Shown: piece after piece, positions 6,190 through 22,559 of the stretch
How positions within the stretch are numbered: the first letter of the stretch is position 1
How the letters are laid out: every line of letters begins with the position of its first letter
Assembly: GCF_000025945.1 (NCBI RefSeq)
Contig: NC_006138.1
Coordinates: forward strand, 420,001-452,000
DNA length: 32,000 nucleotides
DNA from: Desulfotalea psychrophila LSv54
Lineage (GTDB): Bacteria > Desulfobacterota > Desulfobulbia > Desulfobulbales > Desulfocapsaceae
Direction: 5' to 3'
Position numbers and translations under genes: made by a program
Notes under the pieces: model-generated
Told to the model about the DNA's origin: nothing
Seen by the model: the letters and a program-made list of their open reading frames with translations, nothing else
The model's database searches: none

Positions 6190-7476
6190 TTACCTCTCTT
6201 CAAGGGGGACAAAGGATCTCTCCTGCCTCCCCGTATAGACCTGACGTGGCCGGGTAATACGGAGGTTCTGGTCATGCAGTTCCCGCCAATTTGCTATCCA
6301 GCCGGGCATTCTACCAATGGCAAACATCACCGTGTACATCTCCGGAGGAATTCCTATTGCCCTGAGAAGAATGCCGCTATAGAAATCGACATTAGGGTAG
6401 AGTTTACGACTGATAAAGTACTCATCTTTCAGGGTTTTCTCCTCAAGCTCCAGGGCAATATCAAGCAGAGGATCGGATTTGTGCAGCTCTGCAAGTACCT
6501 CATAAACCCTCTTCTTGAGGATGCTGGCCCGGGGATCAAAATTTTTATAGACCCGATGGCCAAAGCCCATCAGTTTGTAATCGTTACTTTTATCCTTTGC
6601 CCTGTTGATATAATAGTCAATCTTCCGGCCCGAGGCCATAATCTCTTCCAGCATCTCTATCACGGCTGCATTGGCACCACCATGCAGGGGTCCCCAAAGG
6701 GCACATACCCCTGAGGCGACGGAACTAAACAGGTTCGCCCTGGAACTGGCCACTGTTCTCACCGTTGAGGTCGAGCAGTTCTGCTCATGATCGGCATGGA
6801 GTATCAGGAAAAGTGCCAAAGCCCTTTCGACAGCTGGACTGGGGATATATTCTTGAAAGGGCTCGGAAAACATCATATGCAGAAAATTTGCACAGTAAGT
6901 GAGATGGGGGTTTGGCTGATTAAAGGGTTTGCCGACAGACATCCGATAGGACCAGGCTGCTATGGTTCGAACCTTGGACAGGAGGAGGGCGGCAGTTCGA
7001 TCAAAGCCATGCCCCTCTGAGTGTACCTCCAGAACACCGGGGTGGAAACAGGAGACCAGGTTAAGCATTGCCGAGAGAATCGCCATGGGAGGCGACGATT
7101 CGGGAAATCCGGAAAAGTAGTGATAGAGGCTTGTGTGCAGTGGCGCATGTTCTGCCAGGGCCCTGCGAAACCTGTTCAGGGTTTCTGCATCGGGAAGTTC
7201 ACCATAGATAATCAGCGAGCATGTCTCCACAAAACTTGCCCTCTCCGCTATCTGCTCAATAGGGTAGCCACGATAACGCAGGATTCCTCTCTCACCATCA
7301 ACATATGTGATATCAGAGAAGCAGGCACCAGTACTGCCAAAGCCTGGATCCATGGTGATATAGCCCGATTTAGCACGTAACGATTGAATATCAATACACC
7401 TCTCATCCTCCGTTCCACTGGTAACATCAAGTTCATAACTTGCACCGCCAACAGTCAGGGTTGCTTTTTCACTCAT
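6190..7476 (-). CDS. gltA: citrate synthase (type II)
   Basis: 428 aa containing 'GPLHGGAN', 'GFGHRVYKNFDPRA' and 'LYPNVDFYSG', the catalytic His/His/Asp neighbourhoods of citrate synthases. Confidence 0.95.
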   Translation of the reverse strand: MSEKATLTVGGASYELDVTSGTEDERCIDIQSLRAKSGYITMDPGFGSTGACFSDITYVDGERGILRYRGYPIEQIAERASFVETCSLIIYGELPDAETLNRFRRALAEHAPLHTSLYHYFSGFPESSPPMAILSAMLNLVSCFHPGVLEVHSEGHGFDRTAALLLSKVRTIAAWSYRMSVGKPFNQPNPHLTYCANFLHMMFSEPFQEYIPSPAVERALALFLILHADHEQNCSTSTVRTVASSRANLFSSVASGVCALWGPLHGGANAAVIEMLEEIMASGRKIDYYINRAKDKSNDYKLMGFGHRVYKNFDPRASILKKRVYEVLAELHKSDPLLDIALELEEKTLKDEYFISRKLYPNVDFYSGILLRAIGIPPEMYTVMFAIGRMPGWIANWRELHDQNLRITRPRQVYTGRQERSFVPLEER

Positions 7477-7706
7477 ATTTTCCTCCGTTAAAGACGCTGC
7501 CCTGCAGCAATCTTAGGTTTGCCCCGCTATTCCTCTATTGAAGTGGCCTGAAAACAAGCAGAAACAGCATTTTGAGTAAAAAAAGCTGTTCCATACATTG
7601 TAGGTCAGTTATAAGATATTGTGTATGTAAATATTTTCCCTGACTCGTGATCGATCTGTATTTATCATGTTAATATGGCAATAAAAGGTAAAGAGGAGAG
7701 AAGAAC

Positions 7707-7958
7707 ATGTTTATGACTGCCACCAGAATCAAAAGAGAAGGCAAACCTTTGTTAAAACTCAACATCCATGAATATAACAAAGACGACATTCCATTCTTAG
7801 ACAGCCTTGGCATTGACCAACTTGAAGGCGACTCGACAGAATGGAGATATATCCATATCCACAGCCAAAAAGATTTTCTCAGTACCCGTTCTGCAATCCT
7901 TGAGAGATACAGGATTCTGAAAGAAACAGGTCCAAGGGTCTTTCTGGAAGCGAAGTAG
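7707..7958 (+). CDS. small hypothetical protein (83 aa)
   Basis: Strong SD (GAGGAGAG) about 7 nt upstream of the ATG and no overlapping ORF. No domain recognised. Confidence 0.5.
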   Translation: MFMTATRIKREGKPLLKLNIHEYNKDDIPFLDSLGIDQLEGDSTEWRYIHIHSQKDFLSTRSAILERYRILKETGPRVFLEAK

Positions 7959-8059
7959 ACAAAATGCCTCGCCCTTTTTTTATCTTGGTATTGCTCTTCA
8001 TCTGTAGTAGTTCATAGCCAATCCAAGCCGCCATTTTCAATAATCAACCAGGTGATGCA

Positions 8060-8590
8060 GTGCAGGAATTACAATATTTACAGGGATATCCAGACCATAT
8101 CACAGAGCAGGTCCAGCGCCTGATAGCAGAACAGAAATTAGATAAGCTCCTGCTGAAGAAATATCCAAAGCCGCATGAGATTCGGACAGACAAGGCTCTC
8201 TACCGCTATGTGATGGCAATAAAGAATAGTTCCATTCAGCAATCACAGCCCCTGAGCAAGATACTCTTTGACGCAAAAATCAAGATGCAACACCAGGCCC
8301 TGGGGGTGCATAAATTTATCTCACGGGTGCAGGGTGGTAAGCTCAAGGCTAAAAATGAGATCCGCATCGCCTCCACCTTCAGGAATACCCCGGAACCCCT
8401 TCTCCGCATGATTGTCGTCCATGAACTGGCCCATCTTAAAGAGAAAGAGCACAACAAGGCATTTTTCCAACTCTGCAAACATATAGAGCCTGAATACCAT
8501 CAGCTCGAATTTGATATGCGCCTCTACCTGACCCAGGTCGATCTGGCCGGCCCCTTATATAAAAAGGAAGCACCCGCCAGCCCCATATGA
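8060..8590 (+). CDS. YgjP-like (DUF45 / M48-type) zinc metallohydrolase
   Basis: Carries 'VVHELAHLKEKEHNKAFF', which is HExxH followed by the conserved H of the YgjP/SprT-like family. GTG start. Confidence 0.8.
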   Translation: MQELQYLQGYPDHITEQVQRLIAEQKLDKLLLKKYPKPHEIRTDKALYRYVMAIKNSSIQQSQPLSKILFDAKIKMQHQALGVHKFISRVQGGKLKAKNEIRIASTFRNTPEPLLRMIVVHELAHLKEKEHNKAFFQLCKHIEPEYHQLEFDMRLYLTQVDLAGPLYKKEAPASPI

Positions 8591-8732
8591 ATTTCCCTGC
8601 TCTTGCTGAAAAGGGCCCTCTCAGTAAACGGGAAAACGTCCTGGCCTCGTCAGCAGAAACGACGGGCGGTGGGATTTGCAGGCTTTTCCAGATAAGTCAA
8701 GGCGCCGAGCCAACATCTAAAAATGAAATGAA

Positions 8733-9155
8733 ATGAAATTTATTTTCTCGATCGTTCTGGTACTTTTTCTAGCAATTGCAGGACTGGGCATATACAAATT
8801 CAACCTGCTTGAAGACGATATCTATATGTCCGCTGATGCAGTCAGGCACGAGGATATGATCGGAGGATGGGTTCGACCGATAGAAAGCATGCCCGGCGAA
8901 GTCGAAGGTTTTGAACTACGTCCCAATGGAGTTGCCGTTTCAATCAATATGGCCACTCTGCCCTACACCTCGTGGCAACTGCTGACAGGAAAGTTGATCC
9001 TCAAGGGTAGATCAGTGGGCAACGGTACTAGTTCTGTAATAACAGAGACTTACACCATCAACAGCGTGGGAAAAGCAAACATGTCTGTCATCGATGAACA
9101 GGGTCGAGATATCGTATTTGACCATCAGCCCCTCAAAGAGCCCAACAACCAATAA
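8733..9155 (+). CDS. membrane-anchored or exported hypothetical protein
   Basis: N-terminal hydrophobic anchor MKFIFSIVLVLFLAIAGLGIY followed by a small beta-rich domain. Confidence 0.6.
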   Translation: MKFIFSIVLVLFLAIAGLGIYKFNLLEDDIYMSADAVRHEDMIGGWVRPIESMPGEVEGFELRPNGVAVSINMATLPYTSWQLLTGKLILKGRSVGNGTSSVITETYTINSVGKANMSVIDEQGRDIVFDHQPLKEPNNQ

Positions 9156-9179
9156 ATCATTTGCCCAACCGGAGCTTAC

Positions 9180-9950
9180 ATGACACCTAATAATTTCATT
9201 GTACATCTCGTGCAAGGAGGAAGCGCCGGGGGGTGCCTACGTCTTGCCTGCAAGTCATTTGGTTTACCCGGCAGCGTTCATCTCATCCAGGATGATTTCA
9301 GTCATGGTCCCTTAAAAAATGGCCCTGCCCGTGAAAAATATCTACGTGATTGCTCCCGCGGATATGCAGATGAGGAGGAGGATGAGATTAATACCTTAGC
9401 CCCCTGGCTCTCACTCAGTGAAATATTGGACAAGGGGTCCATTAAGCAGGTATGTATCTGGGCTGGTGAAAACGCTGCCGAGAAAACGTTTTTAGAAATG
9501 GCATGCTGGTATCTTCGTAACTACGCTGGAACCATAATGCGGGTAGGGGCTACGGGATTGGAGCAGCTTCCCTATATTGCTCCCCAGAACCCGGAAACCC
9601 TGGTCAGACTATTTGCACAAGGTCAAATTTTAGAGAGGGCCGATCGCACCGTACTTGTTGAGAGTTTCATTCAGACAAGAGATGAGGAGAGCACCCTGAG
9701 GAGATGGGAAGCTGGAGAGATCATTTCAGTACCGGTAGATTACTATGACAGCCTGCTGATGGAGCGATGCTCCAGCCAATGGACATGGGCGGCCAAAATT
9801 GTCGGTGAGGCAATGGGGCGATGTGATGCTCACAATCTGCTCGGCGATGTCTTCCTGACGAGCCGGCTTCAATATCTGATCGACCAGGGCATGCTACAGT
9901 ATAAGGGCGAACGGAAAAGCCTCCGAGACTATTGGCTCCGCTTGACCTAA
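9180..9950 (+). CDS. DUF1835/DUF3658-like protein
   Basis: The N-terminal 'IVHLVQGGSAGGCLR' matches the remembered DUF1835 pattern (h-I-x-x-G-x-S-a-a-G-x-L). The C-terminal 'GDVFLTSRLQYLIDQGML' resembles the DUF3658 tail. Recalled from memory, not searched. Confidence 0.6.
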   Translation: MTPNNFIVHLVQGGSAGGCLRLACKSFGLPGSVHLIQDDFSHGPLKNGPAREKYLRDCSRGYADEEEDEINTLAPWLSLSEILDKGSIKQVCIWAGENAAEKTFLEMACWYLRNYAGTIMRVGATGLEQLPYIAPQNPETLVRLFAQGQILERADRTVLVESFIQTRDEESTLRRWEAGEIISVPVDYYDSLLMERCSSQWTWAAKIVGEAMGRCDAHNLLGDVFLTSRLQYLIDQGMLQYKGERKSLRDYWLRLT

Positions 9951-9983
9951 TAAAATACCTTGCCAGGTTTTTTTGCTATTTAC

Positions 9984-10425
9984 GGCCTTGTTGCATAAAT
10001 CATGAGGGAAGAAAATCATCTTCCCTCTACGCCATGCCATCTTAGCAAACAGCTTCTCGAACAGGCATTCCTAAAGCGCTAATCTTGTTCAAAGCTTTAA
10101 TCACAGCTCTACCTGCTTGACCGTTGGTGATATCCTGTGCCTTTCAATTCACCTTAACTGTTTGGGCACGCCTGCTAACAGGTGTATCAAAAGCCCGGGG
10201 ATCAATGACCATCAGGTCAAAAATTGAATTTAGAAAACCTTCAGCTCCTCTGAGAGAAAGACCGTAAATGGTTCCATCAAACAAATCATGCATCATCAGT
10301 GTGCTTGTGACTACGACCACGCTGTCCTGATGTACCAACTCTCAATCGCTTTCTTGTCCACCCAAAACGTCAACGCCGCTGCTTCAGCGCTCTGTTGTAT
10401 TCAGGCCAATTTGTGCAACAAGGCC
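9984..10425 (-). mobile_element. internally deleted IS903-group (IS5 family) insertion-sequence relic with both terminal inverted repeats
   Basis: Terminal IRs are GGCCTTGTTGCATAAATC (9984-10001, + strand) and GGCCTTGTTGCACAAATT (reverse complement of 10408-10425), close to the IS903 IR GGCTTTGTTGAATAAATC. Minus-strand frames give 'LTFWVDKKAIESWY', then 'GLSLRGAEGFLNSIFDLMVIDPRAFDTPVSRRAQTVKVN' (track ORF 10144-10338), then 'AVIKALNKISALGMPVREAV*'. These match the N-terminal and extreme C-terminal blocks of IS903 transposase. The DDE core is missing and the frames are broken. Confidence 0.8.
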
Positions 10426-10554
10426 CCATGAACTTACTAACGGAATGATTAAGACGAGAATCCCCCATCCTTTCCACACAAACATAACTGATTCCAACTT
10501 CTTAAAATGTGTTTCAAAACTTAGTCTGTTGCACTTATTGTACTACTCCAGCCA

Positions 10555-10633
10555 TATTGGCTTTGACATCACTCATTTTGATATTAATGGACGTCATACC
10601 TGATAATTTCAATTCAATTTTATTGTCTTGAAT
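10555..10633 (-). pseudogene. fragment of a third copy of the duplicated secreted-protein gene
   Basis: 10555-10633 aligns by eye to 10820-10905 and 11505-11590 (motif 'gacatcact..ttt..a.attaa.gg.cgtc.tacctgat..ttt.c..tc.attttattgtcttgaat.act'). That is the central part of the 159-aa genes, here with no ORF. Confidence 0.5.
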
Positions 10634-10680
10634 TACTCCTGTAAGCTTATCCACTTTTTTAACTGACTTTTACACGTAGT

Positions 10681-11160
10681 TTATTTAAAAGTAATACTTA
10701 AAATATCAGATGTATTAACTGGCAAGGTGCCATAAGCAGCTTTGACTGAAAACGTTTGATTTTGTAATGTCCCCGACAAAACATCGCCATTCTTAAATAT
10801 AATCTTACATTCCCTTCCAATGGCATTGACATCACTTTGTTTAACATTAATGGGTGTCTTACCTGATAGTTTACGTTCGATTTTATTGTCTTGAATGACT
10901 GCTGGCTCGTCTAAAATAATATCTTCAATTTTTTTTACTTCCGAGCATGTTCCATCATTTTTATAGTTAGAGCACTTCCAATATGCATTATTCCACAAGA
11001 CTTTTTCCGGATTCCACATGCGGTTCTTGTTGAAAACACATGTACAGGGTTCCTCATCAGCTTTTTCGCCAATCTTAGATGTTCCTAGCTTGTTGGAGGC
11101 CATTGCGGCGGTACTGGCCAAAACACATAGTATAACAAATAATAGCCCAATTTTTTTCAT
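10681..11160 (-). CDS. secreted Cys-containing protein, paralog 1 (159 aa)
   Basis: Signal peptide MKKIGLLFVILCVLASTAAMA, then a Cys-containing segment 'CTCVFNKNRMWNPEKVLWNNAYWKCSNYKNDGTC', then a beta-rich C-terminal domain. Confidence 0.75.
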   Translation of the reverse strand: MKKIGLLFVILCVLASTAAMASNKLGTSKIGEKADEEPCTCVFNKNRMWNPEKVLWNNAYWKCSNYKNDGTCSEVKKIEDIILDEPAVIQDNKIERKLSGKTPINVKQSDVNAIGRECKIIFKNGDVLSGTLQNQTFSVKAAYGTLPVNTSDILSITFK

Positions 11161-11308
11161 AGCACTTACCTCGTTTTTTAGATTCTAATTTTATCTTAAT
11201 GCAAATTACACTTAGCATTAAAAACCGGACAGCCAAACCTTTTCCCTAAAGGATTTACAATAATGCGGCCTACCAATCGTCGAGGGGGACCAACAGCTAG
11301 CAACTTCT

Positions 11309-11325
11309 ATTTGTGCAACAAGGCC
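11309..11325. repeat. solo copy of the IS903-like terminal inverted repeat
   Basis: 'atttgtgcaacaaggcc' is identical to 10409-10425. It sits exactly at the junction between the two tandem units. Confidence 0.6.
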
Positions 11326-11365
11326 GTAAGCATATCCCATTTTTTAACTGAATTTTACACGTAGT

Positions 11366-11845
11366 TTATTTAAAAGTAATACTTAAAATATCAGACGTAT
11401 TAACTGGCAAGGTGCCATAAGTAGCTTTGACTGAAAACGTTTGATTTTGTAATGTCCCCGACAAAACATCGCCATTCTTAAATATAATCTTACAGTCCCT
11501 TCCAATGGCATTGACATCACTTTGTTTAACATTAACGGGTGTCTTACCTGATGATTTACGTTCGATTTTATTGTCTTGAATGACTGCTGGCTCGTCTAAA
11601 ATAATATCTTCGATTTTTTTTACTTCCGAGCATGTTCCATCATTTTTATAGTTGGAGCACTTCCAATATGCATTATTCCACAAGACTTTTTCCGGATTCC
11701 ACTGGCGGTTATTGTTGAAAACACATGTACAGGGTTCCTCATCAGATGGTCCACCAACCTTACTGGTTCCTTGCTTGTCGGAGGCCATTGCTACGGTACT
11801 GGCCAAAACACATAGTATAACAAATGATAGTCCAATTTTTTTCAT
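11366..11845 (-). CDS. secreted Cys-containing protein, paralog 2 (159 aa)
   Basis: More than 90% identical by eye to 10681-11160. The differences cluster just after the signal peptide (ASNKLGTSKIGEKADEE vs ASDKQGTSKVGGPSDEE). Confidence 0.75.
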   Translation of the reverse strand: MKKIGLSFVILCVLASTVAMASDKQGTSKVGGPSDEEPCTCVFNNNRQWNPEKVLWNNAYWKCSNYKNDGTCSEVKKIEDIILDEPAVIQDNKIERKSSGKTPVNVKQSDVNAIGRDCKIIFKNGDVLSGTLQNQTFSVKATYGTLPVNTSDILSITFK

Positions 11846-12549
11846 AGCACTTACCTCGTTTTTTAGATTCTAATTTTATCTTAATGCAAATTACACTTAG
11901 CATTAAAAACCGGACAGCCAAACCTTTTCCCTAAAGGATTTACAATAATGCGGCCTATAGAAAACTGGCTGCGAACAAAAAACGGCTTTTTCAAAAAGGT
12001 GATATATTCACATTTCAATTACTTACCATACCCCGCCCCCCATTGCATTTCAAATGCATTGCCCCCATTTGCATACACGGGCATATGGGGCGGAATCAGC
12101 ATGATATTGCTATACCGAATATGTGAAAACTTTTTATAGGGTTGCTCCATGGCAGATAATATCTCCAATACCAATTCAGGCATTGCCTAAAACACAAATT
12201 CCCCAAATCCCATGATCAGCCATTCTTTCAGGCTGATATCTCCGTCCAGATATGGATTACACAAATATTCATTTTACAAAGATTATGTATTGGGTCCCTG
12301 ATGATTGTAAGAGATGAAAATAGCTGACTCCCCCACAACGATCTCACAATTTCCATTATCACCAGCGGGGATATATTTTCAGACTTACTCCCGACAGTCT
12401 CACCATAGAGCTGTATCCTTTTTGCCGAAGGGAAGGAGAGGGGGGAAAAAGAGAAAAAAAGCTTGATAACGACAAGACCTTCGAACTAATTTTGTCATTA
12501 GGGTAAGATTAGAAAATGGATCAACCACACTCACACCCAAGGATAGAAT

Positions 12550-13833
12550 ATGGAAGTACAAAGGTTTCAACTGCATAATATAGGCTGTTTTGAACAACTG
12601 GAAATTTTGCTCGCTCCCACAAAAGAGAACAACAGCAATATTACTGTATTTATTGGTAATAATGGTGCAGGCAAGACCTCATTATTAAAATCTTTGGCAA
12701 CATCCCTAAGCTGGTTGGTCTCTCGCATTCGAAGCGAGGCGGGCAGTGGTAGCCCTATCCCAGAACTCGTTATCCAAAATAGCAAAAACTCCGCAGCGAT
12801 TGATATTCAAGTTTCTGATAAAAATATCACTACCTCCTCTGCAAAAGATCTCTCTGCCCCCTCAACCTTTGAGTGGAGAATTGCCAAATCTCGAAAGGGA
12901 CGAAAGGGAGAACATAAGAGCCTATTACAACAGGCGAGTCTCTTGGCAAACGCCTATCGCGATCGACTCTCGGCAGATGAACAAACGGCTTTACCGCTCA
13001 TGGCTTTTTATTCTGTTGAGCGTGTTGTTATTGAAATACCTCTACGGATAAAGGGCAAGCATAGCTTTCTCCAGCTCGATGGATACGACAACTCACTACA
13101 GCAAGGAGTTGATTTCAAACGTTTCTTTGAGTGGTTCAGAAAAAGAGAGGATACAGAAAACGAATCGATTATCCCCCCTGAGATCTTGAAACAGCTACAG
13201 GAGCTTACAGAGGAAAACAGCAGCCTGCAACAGGAGTTACAAAAGCTGAATGCCTCAAACAGAGACCGACAGCTCACAGCAGTACGGACCGCCATCAGTA
13301 GCTTTATGCCCGGATTTACCAATCTGAGAGTACGAAGAAAACCACGCCTGCATATGGCCATCGACAAAGATGGAGACACCTTTGATGTAGCCCAACTTTC
13401 CCAGGGAGAAAAGTCTCTGATGACCCTGGTTGGTGATATTGCCCGACGTCTGGCCATGATGAATCCTGGACGGCAAAACCCTCTTGAAGGGGAGGGAATC
13501 ATCCTCATCGATGAGGTTGATATGCATCTCCACCCGCGCTGGCAACGTACGGTCCTTGCCAATCTGAGCAAGACCTTCCCTCATTGTCAGTTTGTGGTAA
13601 GCACCCACTCACCACTGGTGGTGAGCGATATGGCCAACACCCTCTGCTACTCTTTGGACAATGGCATGCTAAAAGAGATTAAGGGGCTCTATGGTCAGGA
13701 TGCCAATCAGGTGCTCACCATTGTGATGGACACGGCAAGTCGCTCCGAAGAGATACAGGAAAAACTGGATAGGGTGCTTGACTCTCTACAGGATGGGGAC
13801 TTAGAGGGGCTAGCTGAAAGACAAGGAGCATAA
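12550..13833 (+). CDS. ABC/SMC-like P-loop ATPase (COG3950 / AAA_15-AAA_21 type), no adjacent partner gene
   Basis: Walker A 'GNNGAGKTS', a coiled-coil insert 'LKQLQELTEENSSLQQELQKLNAS', ABC signature 'LSQGEKSLMTL', Walker B 'IILIDEVDMHLHP' and H-loop 'STHSP'. Confidence 0.85.
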   Translation: MEVQRFQLHNIGCFEQLEILLAPTKENNSNITVFIGNNGAGKTSLLKSLATSLSWLVSRIRSEAGSGSPIPELVIQNSKNSAAIDIQVSDKNITTSSAKDLSAPSTFEWRIAKSRKGRKGEHKSLLQQASLLANAYRDRLSADEQTALPLMAFYSVERVVIEIPLRIKGKHSFLQLDGYDNSLQQGVDFKRFFEWFRKREDTENESIIPPEILKQLQELTEENSSLQQELQKLNASNRDRQLTAVRTAISSFMPGFTNLRVRRKPRLHMAIDKDGDTFDVAQLSQGEKSLMTLVGDIARRLAMMNPGRQNPLEGEGIILIDEVDMHLHPRWQRTVLANLSKTFPHCQFVVSTHSPLVVSDMANTLCYSLDNGMLKEIKGLYGQDANQVLTIVMDTASRSEEIQEKLDRVLDSLQDGDLEGLAERQGA

Positions 13834-13961
13834 CAGGGCGTTTTCCCAATGTTATAAACAGGGCTAGTAACAGCTTAGATTCACATGCTCCTCCACTGCC
13901 TCAGGTCGATCTGGCAGGAGCCCTAGGTAAGAAATAGGGGTTTTACCTCAAAGAAAGGGGC

Positions 13962-14020
13962 TGAACAAAAAAAGGGCGCAATTCTGGGAATTGTGCCCTG
14001 AGTAGATGGTTGAGGTCGGC
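13962..14020 (-). repeat. att-like/terminator repeat, copy A (most diverged)
   Basis: An A-run is followed by the hairpin AGGGCGCAATTC/GAATTGTGCCCT (13973-13999) and then TGGTTGAGGTCGG (14007-14019). Read on the minus strand this is a hairpin plus T-run terminator directly downstream of the 14057 stop. Confidence 0.6.
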
Positions 14021-14056
14021 ATCAACACTGAGTTGCCCCAGAATGCCTGTTAACTT

Positions 14057-14473
14057 TTAAAAATTCTGGTGAGAGGCTATCGCGGCAAAGAGCTTTTTGT
14101 AACTTACTTGGCTAGAAACATTGACTACCGTACCATTCACCATAGTAATACCGATATCATTTCTGTTTATTGAGTTGGTTGGCTTAAAATCACTGTCAAA
14201 ATCAGCCTTCCATAACCAATTCACATCTACCCAATGTTCTATTTTTGCCATAGCACTGAAGTCATGACCTTCATAGGGCGTCACCACTGCACCCACAGAA
14301 ATTATTCTATTTTTATTGTGATAGAGAAGAACAAGGTCACCTTTCTCAATTTTATCTACTTCACTGGCTTTTCCATAAAATGCTGCAGCCTTATTTTGTC
14401 TGAGCATGTATTTAAACGCATTGGGATTACCATTCTTGTCTTTACTATTTGTATTTACTAACCAAGTTTTCAA
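14057..14473 (-). CDS. small PUA-like (EVE/ASCH-type) domain protein, 138 aa
   Basis: TTG start with a GAGGTG SD. The pattern MKTWLVNTN...'KGDLVLLYH'...'IISVGAVV'...'HWVDVNW' follows the EVE-type layout (M-x-x-W-L..., GD-x-V-x-x-Y-H, IVG, W-x-V-D-V). The fold assignment is from memory. Confidence 0.6.
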   Translation of the reverse strand: MKTWLVNTNSKDKNGNPNAFKYMLRQNKAAAFYGKASEVDKIEKGDLVLLYHNKNRIISVGAVVTPYEGHDFSAMAKIEHWVDVNWLWKADFDSDFKPTNSINRNDIGITMVNGTVVNVSSQVSYKKLFAAIASHQNF

Positions 14474-14542
14474 AATTTCACCTCTGCTCTGTAAAAGTTA
14501 ACGCCAAATGTATGAAAAAGCTTAAAAACCAGCCTATTTTTT

Positions 14543-15145
14543 TTATTCTGCCCCAAGCAAGGCAATAGCGGCCTGTAGACGCACATGCTCGTCCTCGCTT
14601 GCCAACAAATCACAAAGAACTTTTATTGCTTCATCCCGTATCCCTTTTACTTGACTATCTTCATCCTCAGGTCGCCGAAAATCATTGTTTATAAAGTCTT
14701 CTATAAGCATGTGGTGCTGAGAAATACTTGAGAGGGTCTTACGTGCCCCGGACAAAGATTTACGCACTGGCATAGGGAGATCTTTTCGAGAGACGGTCTT
14801 GAGATGTTTGACTAAAATGAAATGCGGATTTCCTTCTGGCGAGATCTCTTTTACAAGATTATACCGACAGGTCGTCTTAGTTTTAAAAATATGCACAAGT
14901 TTTTTATCTCTGATAGAGGGCGTTAAGACTAAAGCACCCTCTGGCATATGAACAAATATATCAACCATAGACACCGAGATAGCTGATATATCTGGATAAC
15001 GACCCAACAAAGCCCTCTCTATTTCTGACCGATTTTCCCCAGTTAGATCCTTACCGCATGGCCAGCCTATACTGATGCAACCTTCTAAAAATTGTGCTTC
15101 CCGATTGATGCCGTCTGGTTTTGCTCTTAAAATTATTGCCTTCAT
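14543..15145 (-). CDS. hypothetical protein with an N-terminal beta-barrel-like (PUA-like?) module and a C-terminal HEAT-like repeat, 200 aa
   Basis: Start set at the ATG with a strong SD (AGAGGAGA). The N-terminus 'MKAIILRAKPDG..FLEGCISIGWP' and 'MPEGALVLTPS' resemble N-terminal reader modules of restriction-type proteins. The C-terminus 'SEDEHVRLQAAIALLG' is HEAT/PBS-lyase-repeat-like. Confidence 0.65.
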   Translation of the reverse strand: MKAIILRAKPDGINREAQFLEGCISIGWPCGKDLTGENRSEIERALLGRYPDISAISVSMVDIFVHMPEGALVLTPSIRDKKLVHIFKTKTTCRYNLVKEISPEGNPHFILVKHLKTVSRKDLPMPVRKSLSGARKTLSSISQHHMLIEDFINNDFRRPEDEDSQVKGIRDEAIKVLCDLLASEDEHVRLQAAIALLGAE

Positions 15146-15337
15146 AAAATCTCCTCTAAATTGATTTTCACAACCAAGGCCCCTCATGGTTCATAGTACC
15201 TCTAAAAGCGTCTTTTCGACTTCTATGAAACAACTGAACGAGAAACAATGCAAGCTTTTCTCAACCTCTTAGTTCTCCTGAGAAGGGAAAGTGAAGTTCT
15301 ATGTACATGGTGACTTTGCTTTTCTACTTACCTGTCT

Positions 15338-15430
15338 TGCCACCCAGTTTACCGACAAGGGGCTGGGCTTCCCGTCGTCCTGGAAATTATTCGCTTATGG
15401 GGCGATTTGCTCAAGGTGGAGATCAGGTAA
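15338..15430 (+). pseudogene. relic of a histidine-kinase C-terminus (HATPase_c G2 box)
   Basis: 'ccacccagtttaccgacaaggggctgggcttcccgtcgtcctggaaattattcgcttatggggcg...gtggag' parallels 6018-6105 of the intact kinase. It translates as GAGLPVVLEIIRLWG..VE, against GRGLGLPVVLGIIRSWGGWIGVES in the intact gene. There is no upstream ORF and an indel is present. Confidence 0.65.
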
Positions 15431-15775
15431 GAATACCTGAAAAGGTTAGTACAGGTTTATGGATAAACAGTTCAGGCTAACATGTTAGAATAAATGCAAC
15501 AAATCCTAGTTCACGAAGATCGATATGTGGTATCTTTGTTCTTGGGTGAATTGGCAGTAATTTTTTGCTTTCCATTAAACAAACCTTGGACTGAAGTGCA
15601 AGATCGGAAGCCCCATCTCCAACTCACTCACTTTTCAAATTTTAATCTGCTGTACTTACTGTACCAATCAATCATCAATTTCTCGGAACTACAACAAAAG
15701 TGCTGTAGGTTGGCCAAGTTACACACTCACAAAAACTTTTTATAACCTTGGCTAATTTAAACATTGAGGTGCAAA

Positions 15776-17848
15776 ATGAAAGAAAGAGCAATAGGGTACC
15801 TGCGAAATGCCCTTAATAAACCAGAAGCAAATTTTCGTGATGGGCAATGGGAAAGTATTGAGCAGTTGCTGAATAACAAACGGGTTTTAGTCGTTCAGCG
15901 AACAGGTTGGGGAAAAAGCATGGTATACTTTCTTGCAACTAAGCTTTTGCGTGAGCAGGGGGCTGGTCCGACCCTATTGATATCACCACTTTTATCGCTA
16001 ATGCGTAACCAAGTTGAGGCGGCTACACGAATTGGTGTTAGAGCAAAAACAATTAACAGTACCAATAATGAGGAATGGGACACCGTTCAAACAGAACTGG
16101 AAGCCAATCAAGTTGATGTACTGCTTATCTCACCTGAGAAGTTAGGTAATGATGATTTTCGACAGAATATCTTATCAACTATGGCTGATAAGGTAGGATT
16201 GTTTGTTGTGGATGAGGCACATTGTATTTCTGATTGGGGGCATGATTTCAGACCCAAGTACAGACAAATTGTACGGGTGCTCCAAGCTTTACCATCAAAT
16301 ATCCCTGTTCTTGCAACAACAGCGACTGCTAATAATAGGGTTGTAGATGACGTTAAATCGCAATTGGGTGATGACATTGAACTCATAAGAGGTTCACTTG
16401 TTCGTCAAAGCCTTAGACTTCAGAATATAACAATGCCAAGCTCTGCTGCGAGATTGGCTTGGCTTGCCCAGACCATTCCTAAACTTCCTGCTAGCGGCAT
16501 CGTCTACACTTTGACAAAAAGGGATGCTGATAGAGTCACTGAGTGGCTTCAACTAGTTAATATAGATGCTAAAGCTTACTACAATGGTGTTCCTAACAGA
16601 GAGGATCTTGAACAACAGTTATTTCATAATGAAGTAAAAGTACTGGTCGCAACAGTTGCACTGGGGATGGGCTTTGATAAGCCTGATTTAGGGTTTGTTA
16701 TCCATTTTCAAAGACCTAGTTCTGTTGTTCATTATTATCAGCAAGTTGGTCGTGCAGGGCGGGCTGTTGAAGAGGCATATGGCATTTTATTGAGTGGAAC
16801 AGAAGACGATCAGATTACGGACTTCTTTATCCGTAGTGCTTTTCCTCCACAAAAACATATATCGGAAGTAATTAGGGTGCTTGATGAATCAAATGACGGT
16901 CTATCTTCTTACTCTATGGAAAAAGTTTTGAATCTTCGGACTAAACAAATTATGAACACCATAGACTATCTTGCTGCTGAGTCACCCGCACCAGTTGTAA
17001 AAGTTGGGACAAAGTGGAATGCGACTGCCACAGCTTCAACGTATAGAATTAACCAAGAAAACATAGATGCAATCACTGCCATTCGTCGCCAAGAACAGCA
17101 GCAAATGCATGAGTACATGCAACATACTGGTTGCTTAATGGCATTTCTGCAAGATGCACTGGATGATCCAGCACCTCAAAATTGTGGAAAATGCCAAAAC
17201 TGCGCACCAGAGTTACGGCTCGATGAAAGCTACGATAATGACTTGGCCAATAAGGCGGGCCTTTTTTTGCGCCGGAGTTATCAACCCGTTAAAGCAAAAA
17301 AAAAATGGCCACCCCACAACCCGTTACCAACCTACAATTTTTCTGGCATGATACGAGAGAATTTAATAGCATCTGAGGGTCGTGCGTTAAGTCTCTGGCG
17401 TGATGCCGGATGGGGCGAATTGATTTATAAAGGGAAATATGAGGATAATCATTTTTCTGATGTCTTGGTGACAGCTTGTGTGGAAATGTTGCGAGAATGG
17501 GCACCCGAGGAGGCACCCAAATGGGTTACTTGTATACCATCTATCAACCATCCTGATTTGGTACCAAATTTCGCAAAACGTCTGGCTAGGGCGTTAGAGA
17601 TACCGTTCGTAGATTGCGTTGTAAAAGTACAAAATAATCAACAACAAAAAACTATGGAAAACAGCTTTCAACAAGCAAGAAATTTGGATGGTGTTTTTAA
17701 GGTTAATCTCGAATCTAGAGCATATAGCCCATGCTTGCTTATTGATGACATGGTTGATTCTGGTTGGACTTTCACTGTTGCGGCTGCCCTATTACGACAA
17801 GTTGGTTGCACCGCAGTTTATCCTTTAGCTCTAGCGCTGAATTCTTAA
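15776..17848 (+). CDS. RecQ-family DNA helicase fused to a C-terminal ComFC-type phosphoribosyltransferase domain
   Basis: Start set at the ATG six nt after a GAGG SD. RecQ motifs present: 'FRDGQWESI', 'TGWGKS', 'DEAHCISDWGHDFRPKY', 'ATTATA', 'QQVGRAGR', and a Zn cluster C-x16-C-x2-C-x2-C with the same spacing as E. coli RecQ. The C-terminal ~170 aa carry 'VTCIPS', 'QQK..ENSFQQARNLDGVF' and the PRPP loop 'LLIDDMVDSGWTFT'. Confidence 0.9.
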   Translation: MKERAIGYLRNALNKPEANFRDGQWESIEQLLNNKRVLVVQRTGWGKSMVYFLATKLLREQGAGPTLLISPLLSLMRNQVEAATRIGVRAKTINSTNNEEWDTVQTELEANQVDVLLISPEKLGNDDFRQNILSTMADKVGLFVVDEAHCISDWGHDFRPKYRQIVRVLQALPSNIPVLATTATANNRVVDDVKSQLGDDIELIRGSLVRQSLRLQNITMPSSAARLAWLAQTIPKLPASGIVYTLTKRDADRVTEWLQLVNIDAKAYYNGVPNREDLEQQLFHNEVKVLVATVALGMGFDKPDLGFVIHFQRPSSVVHYYQQVGRAGRAVEEAYGILLSGTEDDQITDFFIRSAFPPQKHISEVIRVLDESNDGLSSYSMEKVLNLRTKQIMNTIDYLAAESPAPVVKVGTKWNATATASTYRINQENIDAITAIRRQEQQQMHEYMQHTGCLMAFLQDALDDPAPQNCGKCQNCAPELRLDESYDNDLANKAGLFLRRSYQPVKAKKKWPPHNPLPTYNFSGMIRENLIASEGRALSLWRDAGWGELIYKGKYEDNHFSDVLVTACVEMLREWAPEEAPKWVTCIPSINHPDLVPNFAKRLARALEIPFVDCVVKVQNNQQQKTMENSFQQARNLDGVFKVNLESRAYSPCLLIDDMVDSGWTFTVAAALLRQVGCTAVYPLALALNS

Positions 17849-17863
17849 AGAATGGATTGATTT

Positions 17864-19150
17864 ATGAGTAACTATTTAACAGATGATACAAAGGCAATAA
17901 TCCTGCTTTGCGGATTCTTTGGAAAAGACAGCTCTACCAAGCCATTGTCGCAGGGAGATTACAACAAGCTTGTTGATTGGTTGATCAGTTCTGGCATGCG
18001 ACCAAAAGATTTGCTACAGCAAGAAAACATCGACCCAGCAGCAAAAGGATCAGGAATATACCAACAACGGTTAGAGGCCTTGCTCGGACGTGGAGTTCAA
18101 CTAGGCTTCGCCGTTGAGGAGTGGCAGCGTAATGGTATCTGGATTATTAGCCGAAGTGATACTGACTACCCAACACGATACAAAAATCATTTGGGTAAGC
18201 AAGCTCCGCCATTGCTTTTTGGTGTTGGTGATCGCTCGTTACTAACTGGTGGTGGTCTCGCGATCATAGGTTCTCGAAATGTAGATGAAATAGGCGGGAA
18301 TTTTACACGAGAGGTAGGTGCATTATGTGCTCAGAATAGGATGCCTGTCGTGTCAGGTGGTGCCCGTGGTGTAGATCAGTTTTCGATGACAGCGGCACTT
18401 GATGCCGGGGGCATGACTATTGGAGTTCTTGCCGATAGCCTTCTGAAAAAGAGCCTGGAACGTACTGCGCGTAAAGCAATTGCAAGGGGAAGGCTACTAC
18501 TCATTTCTGCTTGTCACCCCAATGCACGGTTCACCGTTGGAACCGCTATGGGGCGAAATAAGCTTATTTATGCCATGGCTGATTATGGTCTGGTTGTAAG
18601 CGCCGAACATAAAAAAGGCGGAACTTGGGCTGGGGCAGATGAAGAGTTAAAACGAGAACACTCTATTCCTGTGTTCGTGAGGCAAGGGAACGATGTCCCA
18701 CTCGGCAATTCAAAGCTTTTAGGCTTAGGTGCAATTGCTTGGCCAGACAAGGTTGACCATCAAAATCTAAGGGGACAGCTTACTGAGCTTTCGTCCCAAT
18801 GTGCCCAAAAGAGTACTCAGAAAAATATGAGCCTACTCGACTTTCAAGAGAGGCAAAAAGAACCGGCCAAGGAGCTCCCTAAAGCAGAGAGTATCGAATT
18901 AACCGAGTCTTCCAATGTTGTTGAAGATACTGCTGCAAAACACTCAGTCACTACAGTGTATGAAACTGTTTTGCCCCTCATATTAGAAAAGCTTGAATCC
19001 CCCACAACGGTTGACGAACTAATATCATCGCTGGATGTGGTTAAAACACAACTCAATGTATGGTTGAAAAAAGCACTTGAGGAAAAAAGAGTGGTTAAGC
19101 TGACACGTCCAGTAAAATATCAAAGGATTAGTTCGAAAGAACAGACGTAA
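17864..19150 (+). CDS. DprA/Smf-like (SLOG Rossmann) protein with a C-terminal winged-helix-like tail
   Basis: Begins 15 nt after the RecQ::PRTase stop. Carries 'YPTRYKNHLGKQAPPLLFGVGD', 'GLAIIGSRN', 'VVSGGARGVDQ', 'TIGVLADSL', 'MGRNKLIYAMAD' and 'KKGGTW', the DprA core order. An acidic linker leads to 'TTVDELISSLDVVKTQLNVWLKKALEEKRV'. Confidence 0.9.
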   Translation: MSNYLTDDTKAIILLCGFFGKDSSTKPLSQGDYNKLVDWLISSGMRPKDLLQQENIDPAAKGSGIYQQRLEALLGRGVQLGFAVEEWQRNGIWIISRSDTDYPTRYKNHLGKQAPPLLFGVGDRSLLTGGGLAIIGSRNVDEIGGNFTREVGALCAQNRMPVVSGGARGVDQFSMTAALDAGGMTIGVLADSLLKKSLERTARKAIARGRLLLISACHPNARFTVGTAMGRNKLIYAMADYGLVVSAEHKKGGTWAGADEELKREHSIPVFVRQGNDVPLGNSKLLGLGAIAWPDKVDHQNLRGQLTELSSQCAQKSTQKNMSLLDFQERQKEPAKELPKAESIELTESSNVVEDTAAKHSVTTVYETVLPLILEKLESPTTVDELISSLDVVKTQLNVWLKKALEEKRVVKLTRPVKYQRISSKEQT

Positions 19151-19406
19151 TACACTGATATAAATTACAGAAAATGCCCGGACAGAAAGTTTGTTACAGC
19201 TCACAATAAAGTTTGGGTTAACAACATAACCTATATCTTGAAAGGGATTTGCCTACGGCCCCCCCTTCTTTGACGTAGACCCGACCTAAAGGGCTCCCCA
19301 CTGTCCAGAGAGGCCGCCCAGGGGGCAATTGGAGGGATGTAAGAACAAGAGGACTACAGGGCACTGCCTGAAGACAAGCGGGGCTACTGCGGAAAGGGGA
19401 AGGCTA

Positions 19407-19492
19407 GGAAAAAAGCACAAAAAAGGGTCCAATCTCTAATTGAAGAAATTGAGCCCTGAGCAAATGGTGCGGAGGTCGGAAACGAATTAATC
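19407..19492 (-). repeat. att-like/terminator repeat, copy B
   Basis: 'aggaaaaaagcacaaaaaaggg..(degenerate hairpin)..ccctgagcaaaTGGTGCGGAGGTCGGaaacgaattaatc' aligns along its whole length with copy C (21053-21139). It lies just downstream of the 19553 stop on the minus strand. Confidence 0.6.
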
Positions 19493-19552
19493 AGCTAAGC
19501 CACTTAAAAGGCAGATTTTTATGACACACTTTTGGGTACAATCTGGATTATC

Positions 19553-19981
19553 CTACTCAGCGTCAGAATCTTTTTCACGGAGTACCACTGGTATTTGAGT
19601 TACTTTTTTCCAGCGTCCACCTTCACTTTTACAGGAGACTTCAAAAAAGTATCGGCCAGGGCCCGGGGCCTCTACACCTTCCACCCTTGTTCCGAAGTCT
19701 CCTCCATAGGTTCCTTCTTTAATTGTAAACTCTTGTTCACCTACTACCCCAATAGCCTTCTCTGCACTATCCAGCAAAGTTATTTTCACAGTGAACAACT
19801 CGTCACTATTTGCATCGCCCCCATCTCTGTACCACTTGGAAAAAAGCAAAAAACCTGGAAAGTGTGGACCTTCTTTTTTGTTGTAAAACCCAACTTTCAC
19901 CAGATCTTGAAGAGACATTAACCCTGTCAACTCATCTTTAATAACCCGTAAACATGCAACCGATGTTATATGTTTTGGCAT
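19553..19981 (-). CDS. hypothetical protein (142 aa), third gene of the hicAB operon
   Basis: The ATG lies 3 nt after the hicB stop. The sequence is beta-rich with no recognised motif. Confidence 0.65.
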   Translation of the reverse strand: MPKHITSVACLRVIKDELTGLMSLQDLVKVGFYNKKEGPHFPGFLLFSKWYRDGGDANSDELFTVKITLLDSAEKAIGVVGEQEFTIKEGTYGGDFGTRVEGVEAPGPGRYFFEVSCKSEGGRWKKVTQIPVVLREKDSDAE

Positions 19982-19984
19982 GCT

Positions 19985-20551
19985 TTAACCCCTAGATGAT
20001 AAATTAATAGTGTTAACAGAAGACTCAAAATCAGACTTAACAACAGAAGTCCACTCATTAAGTGATGCCCCTGGCGTTTGTCTTTTCTCATACACACCAG
20101 ATAAACTTACCTCTTGAAAAGTAGCCTCCTGCTTCATCAGTAGATCTTGATGGTGACCCATCATTTTTCCTTGATTCACAAGTATCTCATCCAACTTATC
20201 AGAAATGCCTGCTTCTTTTGCCACCCCACCAATTTGACTGACTATGTAGGTGTTAAGGGACACACCACTTTTTTCGGAACGTTCTACGAGTTCACGGTGA
20301 AGCTCTTTTCCCATACGGAGACGAACTTGCCCACTATACCCCTTATCTTCTTCTGGCTGCTTAACTTGAGGTAATGAAATCCCATTTTTCTTAAGTGAAT
20401 TAATAGCCATTTCAAGGACAATACGAGCATCCTTTAATGCCTCTTTTTGGGTTTCGCCAAAAGCAGACAAAAGAGGAAACTCAGGGAAAGTTACAACGAA
20501 ACAGCCATCTTCTTCACTCCAATGGATTTTTTTCGTAAATTTTTCTTTCAT
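19985..20551 (-). CDS. hicB: HicB-family antitoxin with an RHH DNA-binding module and a ~65-aa C-terminal extension
   Basis: 'IHWSEEDGCFVVTFPEFPLLSAFGETQKEALKDARIVLEMAI' is the HicB N-domain. 'GQVRLRMGKELHRELVERSEKSGVSLNTYIVSQI' is a ribbon-helix-helix. Separated by 1 nt from hicA. Confidence 0.85.
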   Translation of the reverse strand: MKEKFTKKIHWSEEDGCFVVTFPEFPLLSAFGETQKEALKDARIVLEMAINSLKKNGISLPQVKQPEEDKGYSGQVRLRMGKELHRELVERSEKSGVSLNTYIVSQIGGVAKEAGISDKLDEILVNQGKMMGHHQDLLMKQEATFQEVSLSGVYEKRQTPGASLNEWTSVVKSDFESSVNTINLSSRG

Positions 20552-20552
20552 T

Positions 20553-20825
20553 CTATAGCCCTTCCTCTAATGAGTTGTCGTCAATGAATTGCACAAACTT
20601 TCTTACCTGATAAATCTTAGCCATTTTTTTATCTCCTTCCCTCGGTTGGAGGTTCAAAAAATGGTATGGATCATCGTGACGTTTGTACTGTTCGTGACTG
20701 CCGTCTGTGTGGTCATGGACAAAACCAAACGCCTTAACTAGCTTTTTAAGCTCTTTAAAAGAGACACTCGCGGGACTCTTCCTCGCTTTCTTTAGCAAAT
20801 TTGTAATTTTATCTTTTTTTGACAT
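20553..20825 (-). CDS. hicA: HicA-family mRNA-interferase toxin
   Basis: From the internal Met the protein reads MSKKDKITNLLKKARKSPASVSFKELKKLVKAFGFVHDHTDGSHEQYKR..., the YcfA/HicA pattern including the conserved 'GSHEQY' His. The longer track ORF adds an unlikely hydrophobic leader. Confidence 0.8.
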   Translation of the reverse strand: MSKKDKITNLLKKARKSPASVSFKELKKLVKAFGFVHDHTDGSHEQYKRHDDPYHFLNLQPREGDKKMAKIYQVRKFVQFIDDNSLEEGL

Positions 20826-21052
20826 AAGCAGCAAACCGTCTCTTTTTACCATTAATGGTACCACATTTGGTACCAGATGAGCAATATATAGATATAGTGC
20901 ACTGTGCACAATGCGCCAAATTATATTGTAAAGTGACACAGCTCAACAAACAGTGGCGTTTACTTACATTAAAAGCCCACAAAACATACATTTTTCATCC
21001 AATCATTCAATAGTACCATATACAGAATAGATAATACCGGCACTACCTCAAG

Positions 21053-21139
21053 AGGAAAAAGCACAAAAAAAGGGCGCAATTTCTATTTCTAGAAATTGCG
21101 CCCTAATCAATTGGTGCGGAGGTCGAATTCGAACTAATC
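21053..21139 (-). repeat. att-like/terminator repeat, copy C (best preserved)
   Basis: Perfect 14-bp hairpin AGGGCGCAATTTCT/AGAAATTGCGCCCT (21071-21104), preceded by an A-run (a T-run on the minus strand), then TGGTGCGGAGGTCG (21112-21125). On the minus strand this 14-mer reads CGACCTCCGCACCA, like an acceptor 3' strand plus discriminator plus CCA. Confidence 0.65.
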
Positions 21140-21253
21140 CTGCAAACCCTTTATTCATGGGTAACAAGGAGAATTGAAAAAAATCAACACCTTCAAATAC
21201 ACACGAAAATACACACAGAGAAATACTGCTCTTTTGCTCATCTGTTAAGGTCG

Positions 21254-21302
21254 TCTTCCTCCTAAGCAGAGGTCGCGCGTTCGAATCGCGCCGGAATCAC
21301 CA
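21254..21302 (+). tRNA. 3' fragment (~49 nt) of a tRNA-Arg(CCU) gene: anticodon arm to CCA, with no 5' half
   Basis: Anticodon arm TCTTC/CTCCTAA/GCAGA (anticodon CCT), variable GGTC, perfect T-arm GCGCG-TTCGAAT-CGCGC, acceptor 3' strand CGGAATC, discriminator A and CCA (21300-21302). The required 5' strand GATTCCG is absent from the preceding 100 nt. Confidence 0.75.
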
Positions 21303-21310
21303 GCCATTAA

Positions 21311-21346
21311 AGGTGCTTACGTTTTTCACTGTAAGTGCCTTTTTTG
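21311..21346 (+). terminator. rho-independent terminator following the tRNA fragment
   Basis: 10-bp stem AGGTGCTTAC/GTAAGTGCCT (two G-U pairs), a 10-nt loop, then TTTTTTG. Confidence 0.7.
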
Positions 21347-21474
21347 TTTTTGGCTTTGTGACATCACGATGACATCATATTTTGTGATTTGCTTTTAATA
21401 TGTTAGCGTGGAATTTTCGTATGCTTAACAGGAGAAATAAATCACCATACATATTTAAATAATTGTGAGAAAAC

Positions 21475-21972
21475 ATGACTCAAAATTTCCCAAATTTATT
21501 AAAAAGAAACCTTTGGCATGTGACTAGCAGAGACAGATTCTTGAGTATGCAGTCCTCTGGTGCAATTCTCAGGTGTCCCCCTATTGCGGATTCAGAGCGT
21601 TGGGCAACCTCTCAAGGCCGAGAGCATTGGCCATTAGTAAGATATCTTGGTGGAATAAGTCTTTTTAATTTCAACGATTTTGATCCTGAATTATATACTC
21701 AAACTTACCCAATGTCATCTTGGCGCTCTTTTGTGCCCTCATGTCACCGATTTACTGAAAGTATTTGGATAGAGATAGATAAAGAAGCTATTATTGATAG
21801 TTTGCTTTTTGAGAAGGACCTAAAACAAAGAGTGGCTGAAAGGAATCTTTGGTGTCATAACAGGATGCCTTTGATTGAAATCGCATGTCTATGTGATATT
21901 GATATTGATAATTTTCTCAATGTTTTCTTGCATGATACCCAGGTGCTTGATTTTGTACCTTATGATGGCTAG
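21475..21972 (+). CDS. hypothetical protein (165 aa); weak ADP-ribosyltransferase-fold-like pattern
   Basis: Clean ORF in an AT-rich context. It has N-terminal 'NLWHVTSRDRFLSMQSSGAIL' (an H-x-T/S start as in ART-fold proteins) and C-terminal 'AERNLWCHNRMPLIEIACL'. The assignment is speculative. Confidence 0.55.
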   Translation: MTQNFPNLLKRNLWHVTSRDRFLSMQSSGAILRCPPIADSERWATSQGREHWPLVRYLGGISLFNFNDFDPELYTQTYPMSSWRSFVPSCHRFTESIWIEIDKEAIIDSLLFEKDLKQRVAERNLWCHNRMPLIEIACLCDIDIDNFLNVFLHDTQVLDFVPYDG

Positions 21973-21989
21973 GCATTTTACATAGTGAT

Positions 21990-22538: not shown

Positions 22539-22559
22539 TCCACGCCCTCTGTTTCTAAA

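Follow-up and report, generated by a model that had tools for sequence, protein, structure and literature searches.

The chromosome of Desulfotalea psychrophila LSv54 (contig NC_006138.1, positions 420,001 to 452,000, a stretch of 32,000 nt hereafter called the window) carries two small minus-strand genes between positions 14057 and 15145, designated here open reading frames (ORFs) A and B. They are transcribed divergently from an operon encoding a RecQ-like helicase joined to a phosphoribosyltransferase (PRTase) domain and a DprA-like protein. An initial annotation, made from the sequence without database searches, read both products as PUA-like proteins of the EVE type and proposed that they could be either sensor or specificity components of that operon or an independent mini-system. 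The question raised by the locus is therefore whether these two genes belong to the neighbouring operon, to each other, or to neither. The results presented below make it rather probable that ORFs A and B were acquired separately and are horizontally mobile units of a single gene, each encoding a nuclease-free PUA-like protein, and that they lie beside the neighbouring operon, the known PsyrTA system, but outside it.

Genes, predicted fold and relatives of ORFs A and B

ORF B extends from 14057 to 14473 (minus strand) and encodes a protein of 138 aa from a TTG start codon at 14473. Its Shine-Dalgarno sequence, AGAGGTG (14479–14485, minus strand), was recognized from the sequence and leaves 7 nt from GAGG to the TTG. 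ORF A (14543–15145, minus strand) encodes 200 aa from an ATG at 15145, located 5 nt after the Shine-Dalgarno sequence AGAGGAG (15151–15157, minus strand), which was recognized in the same manner. A reading of 214 aa from an ATG at 15187 is also possible, and every homologue aligns to the 15145 start. The two-gene layout and both ribosome-binding sites are as originally described, and all the motifs quoted at that time are present, namely MKTWLV, GDLVLLYH, IISVGAVV and HWVDVNW in the ORF B protein and MKAIILRA, ISIGWP and EGALVLTPS in that of ORF A. Both are genuine genes and not chance ORFs, because conserved homologue clusters exist for each of them (86 for B and 40 for A in a search of 5.8 billion sequences).

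ORF B is a typical member of Pfam family DUF8426. Its homologues show 43–78% identity, with a single outlier at 33%; nearly all of them are 135–146 aa long and carry a precomputed match to PF28530, the accession of DUF8426, and PF28530.1 is recorded for the exact B protein (P0001) as well as for most homologues. Some sources already label these homologues as "EVE domain-containing protein" or "predicted Mrr-cat superfamily restriction endonuclease", and the PADLOC candidate single-gene system PDC-S02 matches B weakly (E-value 8.7e-6). The EVE-type order of elements first read in this protein was confirmed by the alignment, in which the landmarks W4 and G45-D46-L-V-L-L-Y51-H52 (GD-x-V-x-L-YH) are invariant or nearly so in 26 sequences and the central W/D strand (E79/D83/W86/W88) is also conserved. 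Identity with B reaches 73–76% across Bacteroidota, Alpha- and Gammaproteobacteria, and 62% in a Treponema; values of 73–76% across such phyla and classes indicate that a protein under strong constraint has recently been transferred horizontally.

ORF A is a divergent PUA-like relative of B with an added helical hairpin. The PUA-like domain covers approximately residues 1–155 and is followed by a linker and by a two-helix HEAT-like hairpin at residues 161–199. The homologues in its 40 clusters are about 200 aa long and mostly 44–56% identical. Matches to DUF8426 are recorded on five of these 40, weak wherever their strength is shown, and the exact A protein (P0087) has no recorded match. Pfam EVE gave no match to A, in which the YH of the EVE motif is lost (E-G-A-L-V-L-T-P-S, with conserved P76 and S77 instead). 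Comparison of the profiles of A and B with each other was not significant (probability 0.56, E-value 0.1), and for this reason the common origin of both proteins is argued for solely by the fold and by the shared weak DUF8426 matches.

The initial annotation had also described a HEAT-like repeat at the end of A. One homologue is named "HEAT repeat domain-containing", and the C-terminus of A gave matches to Pfam HEAT/Arm families with E-values of 0.011–0.065, all of them under the curated cut-offs (16.4 bits against 27.7 for HEAT_2, and 14 against 23.5 for HEAT). In the AlphaFold model the last 40 residues or so form one two-helix hairpin (161–199) after a low-confidence linker. With a single hairpin, no tandem array and scores below the cut-offs, A is not a HEAT repeat protein; the comparison of its N-terminal module with that of B is sustained by the fold, and the HEAT-like character of its end is weakly supported.

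The fold was approached with AlphaFold2 models built using homologue alignments of each protein and compared with the PDB by Foldseek. The model of B (predicted local distance difference test, pLDDT, 90.9; predicted template modelling score, pTM, 0.86) gave 68 PDB matches at E-value ≤1e-3, and the top matches listed were all EVE, YTH or EVE-HNH, with template modelling (TM) scores of 0.5–0.6. The best match was the EVE domain of the EVE-HNH restriction enzyme VcaM4I (6yex, E-value 1.7e-5, the top range extending to 5e-4), and the others included many YTH domains, among them that of YTHDF2, and the stand-alone EVE proteins MJECL36, PH1033, PSPTO5229 and Rpa0253, with 2eve and 2gbs among the structures. 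For A (pLDDT 88.8), the top 50 PDB matches were all EVE or YTH, with E-values from 1.1e-3 to 1e-2 and TM-scores on the target of 0.44–0.51. Named matches in a viral structure library were mainly EVE and ASCH proteins. Since confident models of both proteins match EVE/YTH structures in the PDB, the PUA-like fold first proposed from motifs is upheld as a prediction, and support for this EVE/YTH-type fold is strong for B and moderate for A. Searches of Pfam, NCBIfam, PHROGs and PDB sequences with single sequences and profiles gave nothing above threshold for A or B. Moreover, neither protein has a catalytic or nuclease domain in Pfam, NCBIfam, PADLOC or PHROGs, in agreement with the lack of an obvious catalytic motif noted originally.

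A profile search of 1.84 billion representative proteins yielded 162 matches to the B-like domain at E-value ≤1e-3. Many of them were stand-alone proteins of similar size, and many others were longer, about 250–530 aa, and carried the B-like domain C-terminally. A scan of ten of these longer proteins gave PLDc_2, NucS_C, HEPN_Swt1, PIN_12 or DUF1643 in the N-terminal part, and NOV_C at the C-terminus of one of them. Distant relatives of B are thus fused to nuclease domains of the PLD, PD-(D/E)xK-like, HEPN and PIN types and to DUF1643, and the PADLOC candidate single-gene system PDC-S11 matches several of these fusions. Modification-dependent restriction enzymes are built in this way, the B-like domain occupying the place of the reader.

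The closest known counterparts are the stand-alone EVE proteins (PF01878; PSPTO5229, 2eve; PH1033, 1wmm; Atu2648, 1zce), which consist of one domain of about 140 aa and have a PUA-like barrel, as B does; their GD-x-V-x-x-YH landmark and N-terminal W are also found in B. In contrast with them, B does not reach the threshold of Pfam EVE and is assigned to a separate family, DUF8426, A lacks the YH motif and has the extra helical hairpin, and neither of them lies in the conserved housekeeping-type neighbourhoods of EVE genes. YTH domains (YTHDF2, 4rdn, and others), which are eukaryotic readers of N6-methyladenosine (m6A) in RNA, have the same fold class and gave similar Foldseek scores for A and B, but identity with them is only about 10–12%. 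Type IV restriction enzymes such as VcaM4I resemble B in that their EVE domain is its best structural match and in that distant B-like domains are fused to nucleases. However, A and B have no nuclease domain of their own and no consistently adjacent nuclease gene, as no nuclease recurred among 118 flanking ORFs, and they are not enzymes of this type. B adjoins type I restriction-modification (R-M) genes hsdM/hsdS in three loci; stand-alone EVE proteins beside type I R-M systems were noted by Bell et al. (PMC7641849), who also found that EVE domains that evolve quickly typically occur in defence contexts.

In one locus (L050, 218–1882), the gene for a 333-aa PDDEXK_4 nuclease starts 61 nt after a homologue of A with 49% identity and has the same orientation. 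This single case is possibly a reader and a nuclease acting in trans.

Linkage to PsyrTA and distribution

The operon described initially as RecQ::PRTase-DprA (15764–19150, plus strand), the immediate neighbour of A and B, corresponds to PsyrTA (RqlHI), a known system of two genes. PADLOC matched PsyrT over residues 5–692, that is, the whole protein (E-value 2.5e-293), and PsyrA with an E-value of 1.5e-131, and the Pfam domains found were DEAD, Helicase_C, RecQ_Zn_bind and Pribosyltran in the former and DNA_processg_A in the latter. PsyrTA is described in the literature as a toxin-antitoxin pair of two genes, whose function in phage defence has been validated for these two genes (10.1101/2022.05.11.491447). 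It shares the island with A and B, and differs from them in being a self-sufficient two-gene system.

Linkage was studied in 52 loci. Twenty-four were B loci with flanks of up to 10 kb each, obtained by scanning a single genome for each GTDB species, 11 were A loci from a scan of Joint Genome Institute (JGI) metagenomes, and 17 were further A or B loci from look-ups of exact proteins; A, B, PsyrT, PsyrA and PtuA served as tblastn queries on all of them. PsyrT or PsyrA was found beside an A or B homologue in none of these 52 loci from other genomes and metagenomes. The only PsyrA-like match (L042) was a housekeeping dprA beside topA and was discarded. Conversely, A and B were absent from the three plasmid loci of PsyrT homologues (59, 52, and 45% identity). 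A and B, showing no linkage with PsyrTA in these loci, are not taken as components of this system, and the sensor or specificity role proposed for them is not supported.

Neither are A and B regular companions of each other. A was missing from all 29 loci found through a B homologue, and B from 22 of the 23 found through an A homologue. They occur together in only one other locus, a metagenome contig of 2,066 bp (L031), with the same order and orientation and with copies 51% (A) and 72% (B) identical to those of the window. The alternative proposal of an independent mini-system came closer, although it was still overstated. No recurrent partner emerged from 118 flanking ORFs of 37 loci analysed with PADLOC and Pfam, in which no family was present more than three or four times; the most frequent were subunits of type I R-M systems (3–4 ORFs), together with scattered genes for helicases, AIPR, CdiI, resolvase and integrase.

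The distribution of both genes is mostly solitary and borne by cassettes or islands. In a Vibrio-type integron array (L041) a B homologue constitutes a single-ORF cassette between attC sites at 6867–6960 and 7419–7510, and in Vibrio cholerae (L052) an A homologue begins about 150 nt after the 3' end of an attC site (GGCGGGCGTTAGGC), the contig holding the upstream site only. In Aeromonas, A is on a small integrase-bearing island, and the B gene of Nitrosococcus oceani is flanked by a relaxase fragment, a resolvase and BrnTA. Firmicute plasmids hold only distant A-like genes, one of them beside AbiQ. This gene, on the Lactococcus lactis conjugative plasmid NZ_CP065987.1 (L043, 4343–5585), is directly downstream of the ToxN/AbiQ toxin gene and its product is 28% identical to A over residues 6–153. 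Another locus (L042) has two almost identical B-type copies (7001–7417 and 12294–12710) that are 5.3 kb apart in flanking DNA of 95–97% identity, with NACHT, Cas2-like, DUF488 and NYN genes between and around them; this could reflect the duplication of a cassette or small modules arranged as an array.

Both families are therefore found at attC sites, as are the defence cassettes of the sedentary chromosomal integrons of Vibrionaceae, where B is a complete single-ORF cassette. The arrays of Vibrio integrons have been described as reservoirs of compact defence genes against modified phage DNA (10.1101/2025.10.29.685425). The window differs from them in having no convincing attC site and no integron integrase in its 32 kb. 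The sequence after B, which starts with AAGTTAACAGG and ends with TGTTCAGC, loosely resembles R'' and R', and was examined as a possible attC site; on the basis of its sequence and fold it was judged unconvincing.

No relatives of B were detected in 50,697 phage records or in IMG/VR. Those of A were likewise absent from the 50,697 phage records and were represented in IMG/VR by one partial match, limited to C-terminal residues 138–200 (63 residues). This near-absence from phage collections indicates host-side rather than phage-side genes, and a phage-borne anti-defence role was rejected on the same grounds.

Transcription unit, repeats and surrounding island

A and B are separated by 69 nt, and a terminator scanner detected no terminator in 13700–15900, the A-B gap included. 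A terminator-like hairpin was recognized by eye and by folding 3' of ORF B (13967–13998, minus strand), formed by GGGCACAATTC-CCA-GAATTGCGCCC and followed by seven T. It is an 11-bp, G+C-rich stem present in both the minimum free energy and the centroid folds, and its one mismatch is the reason why the strict scanner missed it. This arrangement is in keeping with transcription of both genes as one unit, divergently from the gene starting at 15764. The 618-bp divergent intergenic region between A and psyrT (15146–15763) presumably holds both promoters; the promoter-like matches in it are at consensus level only. No Rfam family was found in or near ORFs A and B, this region included.

Three copies of a repeat of about 90–100 nt are located at approximately 13965–14040, 19406–19492 and 21053–21139. 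On the minus strand, each copy consists of a sequence resembling a tRNA 3' end (CGACCTCCGCACCA) followed by a terminator hairpin with a T-run, and the first copy also provides the terminator-like hairpin of ORF B. ARAGORN found no intact tRNA across the window and therefore none to explain these repeats. At about 21247–21302 (plus strand) there is the 3' half of a tRNA without its 5' half, comprising the T-arm (CGCGC-GTTCGAATC-GCGCC), the acceptor end and CCA. The repeats look like att-type scars of successive or tandem island insertions, made up of tRNA-end and terminator remnants. The repeat-bounded module proposed previously is thus real as far as the repeat is concerned; we read these copies as placing A, B and PsyrTA in one interval and as carrying no functional information.

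A, B and PsyrTA are surrounded by a low-GC island of defence genes and mobile elements of D. psychrophila. The G+C content is 36.5% in B, 42.3% in A and 42–45% in PsyrTA, against about 50% in the core genes on the left, and the G+C fraction at third codon positions (GC3) is 0.33–0.39, with 0.34–0.37 in A and B, against 0.53–0.55 in those core genes; these low values point to a foreign origin of A and B. Convergent with B is a gene for a PtuA-like ATPase (12550–13833, plus strand; PADLOC PtuA E-value 8.2e-150, and a match to the NCBIfam retron Ec78 PtuA family below its cut-off). After it there is no gene for PtuB/HNH, nor was a reverse transcriptase noticed in the ORF list for 6000–24000; this ATPase may be an orphan or a decayed effector of Septu or retron type. 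It was considered as a partner of A and B and dismissed, being on the opposite strand and being found by tblastn beside no A or B in the other loci.

To the right of PsyrTA, a HicA/HicB pair (19985–20939, minus strand), whose HicA scored 26.2 bits, just below the 27-bit Pfam cut-off, precedes an ORF of 142 aa with a faint DUF6941 match, all of them in 19553–20939 (minus strand) between two copies of the repeat. Further on there are a resolvase-like gene (21990–22568) and a pair encoding a helicase and a DUF2290 protein (22689–25508, minus strand; PADLOC E-values 3.8e-230 for Helicase and 7.8e-79 for DUF2290), which is a complete listed defence system. An Rfam match to the C4 antisense RNA family (26698–26773, plus strand; 49.9 bits for a gathering score of 45), known from immunity regions of P1/P7-type phages, hints at a prophage or phage-derived element at the right of the island. 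On the other side, tandem paralogous genes of 159 aa (10681–11160 and 11366–11845, both on the minus strand; G+C content 36–37%), with N-termini resembling signal peptides, are within a direct repeat of 93% DNA identity (11000–11272 and 11685–11957).

Possible action and rival explanations

A and B are best read as stand-alone readers that are probably related to defence, a relation suggested by context only. Under the favoured explanation of two separately acquired single-gene units, the pocket of the barrel would hold a chemically modified base flipped out of a nucleic acid, which is most likely foreign or phage DNA; in B the invariant residues W4, Y51, H52, E79, D83, W86 and W88 would line this pocket. 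As both proteins lack a nuclease domain, an action by occupancy is proposed, in which replication, transcription or packaging of the modified DNA would be blocked, or alternatively an action in trans, in which that DNA would be passed on to a nuclease of the host or to one encoded nearby. The ligand, the role in defence and the way of acting are all inferred.

Several observations weigh against this explanation. The match of B to Pfam EVE (PF01878; 16.2 bits, E-value 0.011) covers residues 33–70 only and fails the gathering threshold of 23 bits, and TM-scores are moderate, 0.5–0.6 for B and 0.35–0.5 for A. As the profiles of A and B match no sequence of the PDB, the assignment of the fold depends on predicted structure. 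B has invariant polar residues (N7, N9, R25, H52, E79 and D83) and an unusually high conservation, both of which could equally point to an enzyme. Some A loci are among housekeeping genes (L026), and the recurrence of the A-then-B tandem in contig L031 makes some cooperation between them possible. DUF8426 is mentioned in no paper found in the literature. Finally, to our knowledge there is no established way for a nuclease-free reader to stop a phage.

The explanation by which A, B or both are sensor or specificity subunits of the divergent PsyrTA, in a four-gene system, is very improbable in spite of what speaks for it: the physical adjacency and the shared 618-bp control region, the position of all four genes between the repeat copies at 13965 and 19406, a similarly low G+C content, and the occurrence of stand-alone EVE proteins beside other toxin-like systems (PMC7641849). 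Against these points stand the lack of co-occurrence in the 52 A/B loci and in the three loci of PsyrT homologues, the sufficiency of two genes for PsyrTA function, the full-length PADLOC matches, which leave nothing missing from PsyrT and PsyrA, and the resemblance of the repeats to remnants of island accretion instead of a functional boundary. The strand, the order, the short gap and the lack of a detected terminator, all shared by A and B, have more weight for another possibility, that both form a facultative two-gene system of their own, either as a heteromeric pair of readers or with the hairpin of A docking onto B or onto the product of a downstream gene. The tandem recurs in an unrelated metagenome contig, the families are rare (40 and 86 clusters in 5.8 billion), so two adjacencies are unlikely by chance, and the A homologue of L050 is likewise upstream in a pair, there with the PDDEXK_4 nuclease. 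We nevertheless regard such a system as unlikely: A is lacking in 29 of 29 B loci and B in 22 of 23 A loci, B is complete as a single-ORF cassette and an attC site precedes an A homologue, gene shuffling in cassette arrays and islands can give recurrent adjacency without function, and the comparison of both profiles was not significant.

It is also possible to regard A, B or both as small enzymes or regulators (a hydrolase, an amidohydrolase or a glycosylase, whose substrate in the PUA pocket would be a modified base or nucleoside), or as a mobile-element factor that shields modified DNA from host restriction. The unusual set of invariant polar residues of B and its very high conservation across phyla are in favour of an enzyme, and catalytic PUA proteins of the ASCH type are known. 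Moreover, single-domain enzymes recognizing modified bases have been documented in Vibrio integron cassettes (10.1101/2025.10.29.685425). But no enzyme family was matched, the nearest structures are pure binding modules, the domain is fused in relatives to separate nuclease domains, as expected of a binding module, and the absence of relatives from the phage genomes searched speaks against a phage-borne shield; taken as a whole, this alternative seems to us rather unlikely. A bolder proposal, to which we grant a small but appreciable likelihood, is that a nuclease-free, single-domain DUF8426 protein would by itself be a complete cassette against phages or mobile elements, either by coating hypermodified DNA, so that its replication or packaging stalls, or through a cryptic catalysis in the pocket with participation of the invariant H52, E79 and D83. 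In that case A-type proteins would be adaptors, their hairpin recruiting variable partners, for example B (in the window and in L031) or the PD-(D/E)xK nuclease (in L050).

Returning to the explanation we favour, in which A and B are separate single-gene units, both proteins would belong to the stand-alone EVE-like readers, a kind already catalogued, in the case of B, as DUF8426. The tempting four-gene model of PsyrTA is removed as unsupported, and DUF8426 appears as a very small, strongly conserved and widely transferred family of stand-alone reader domains. If the reading of a modified base were enough to protect the cell without a nuclease, these proteins would represent a mode of immunity of its own, very compact and directed at phages whose DNA is modified; otherwise A and B would be ordinary orphan reader modules in a defence island.

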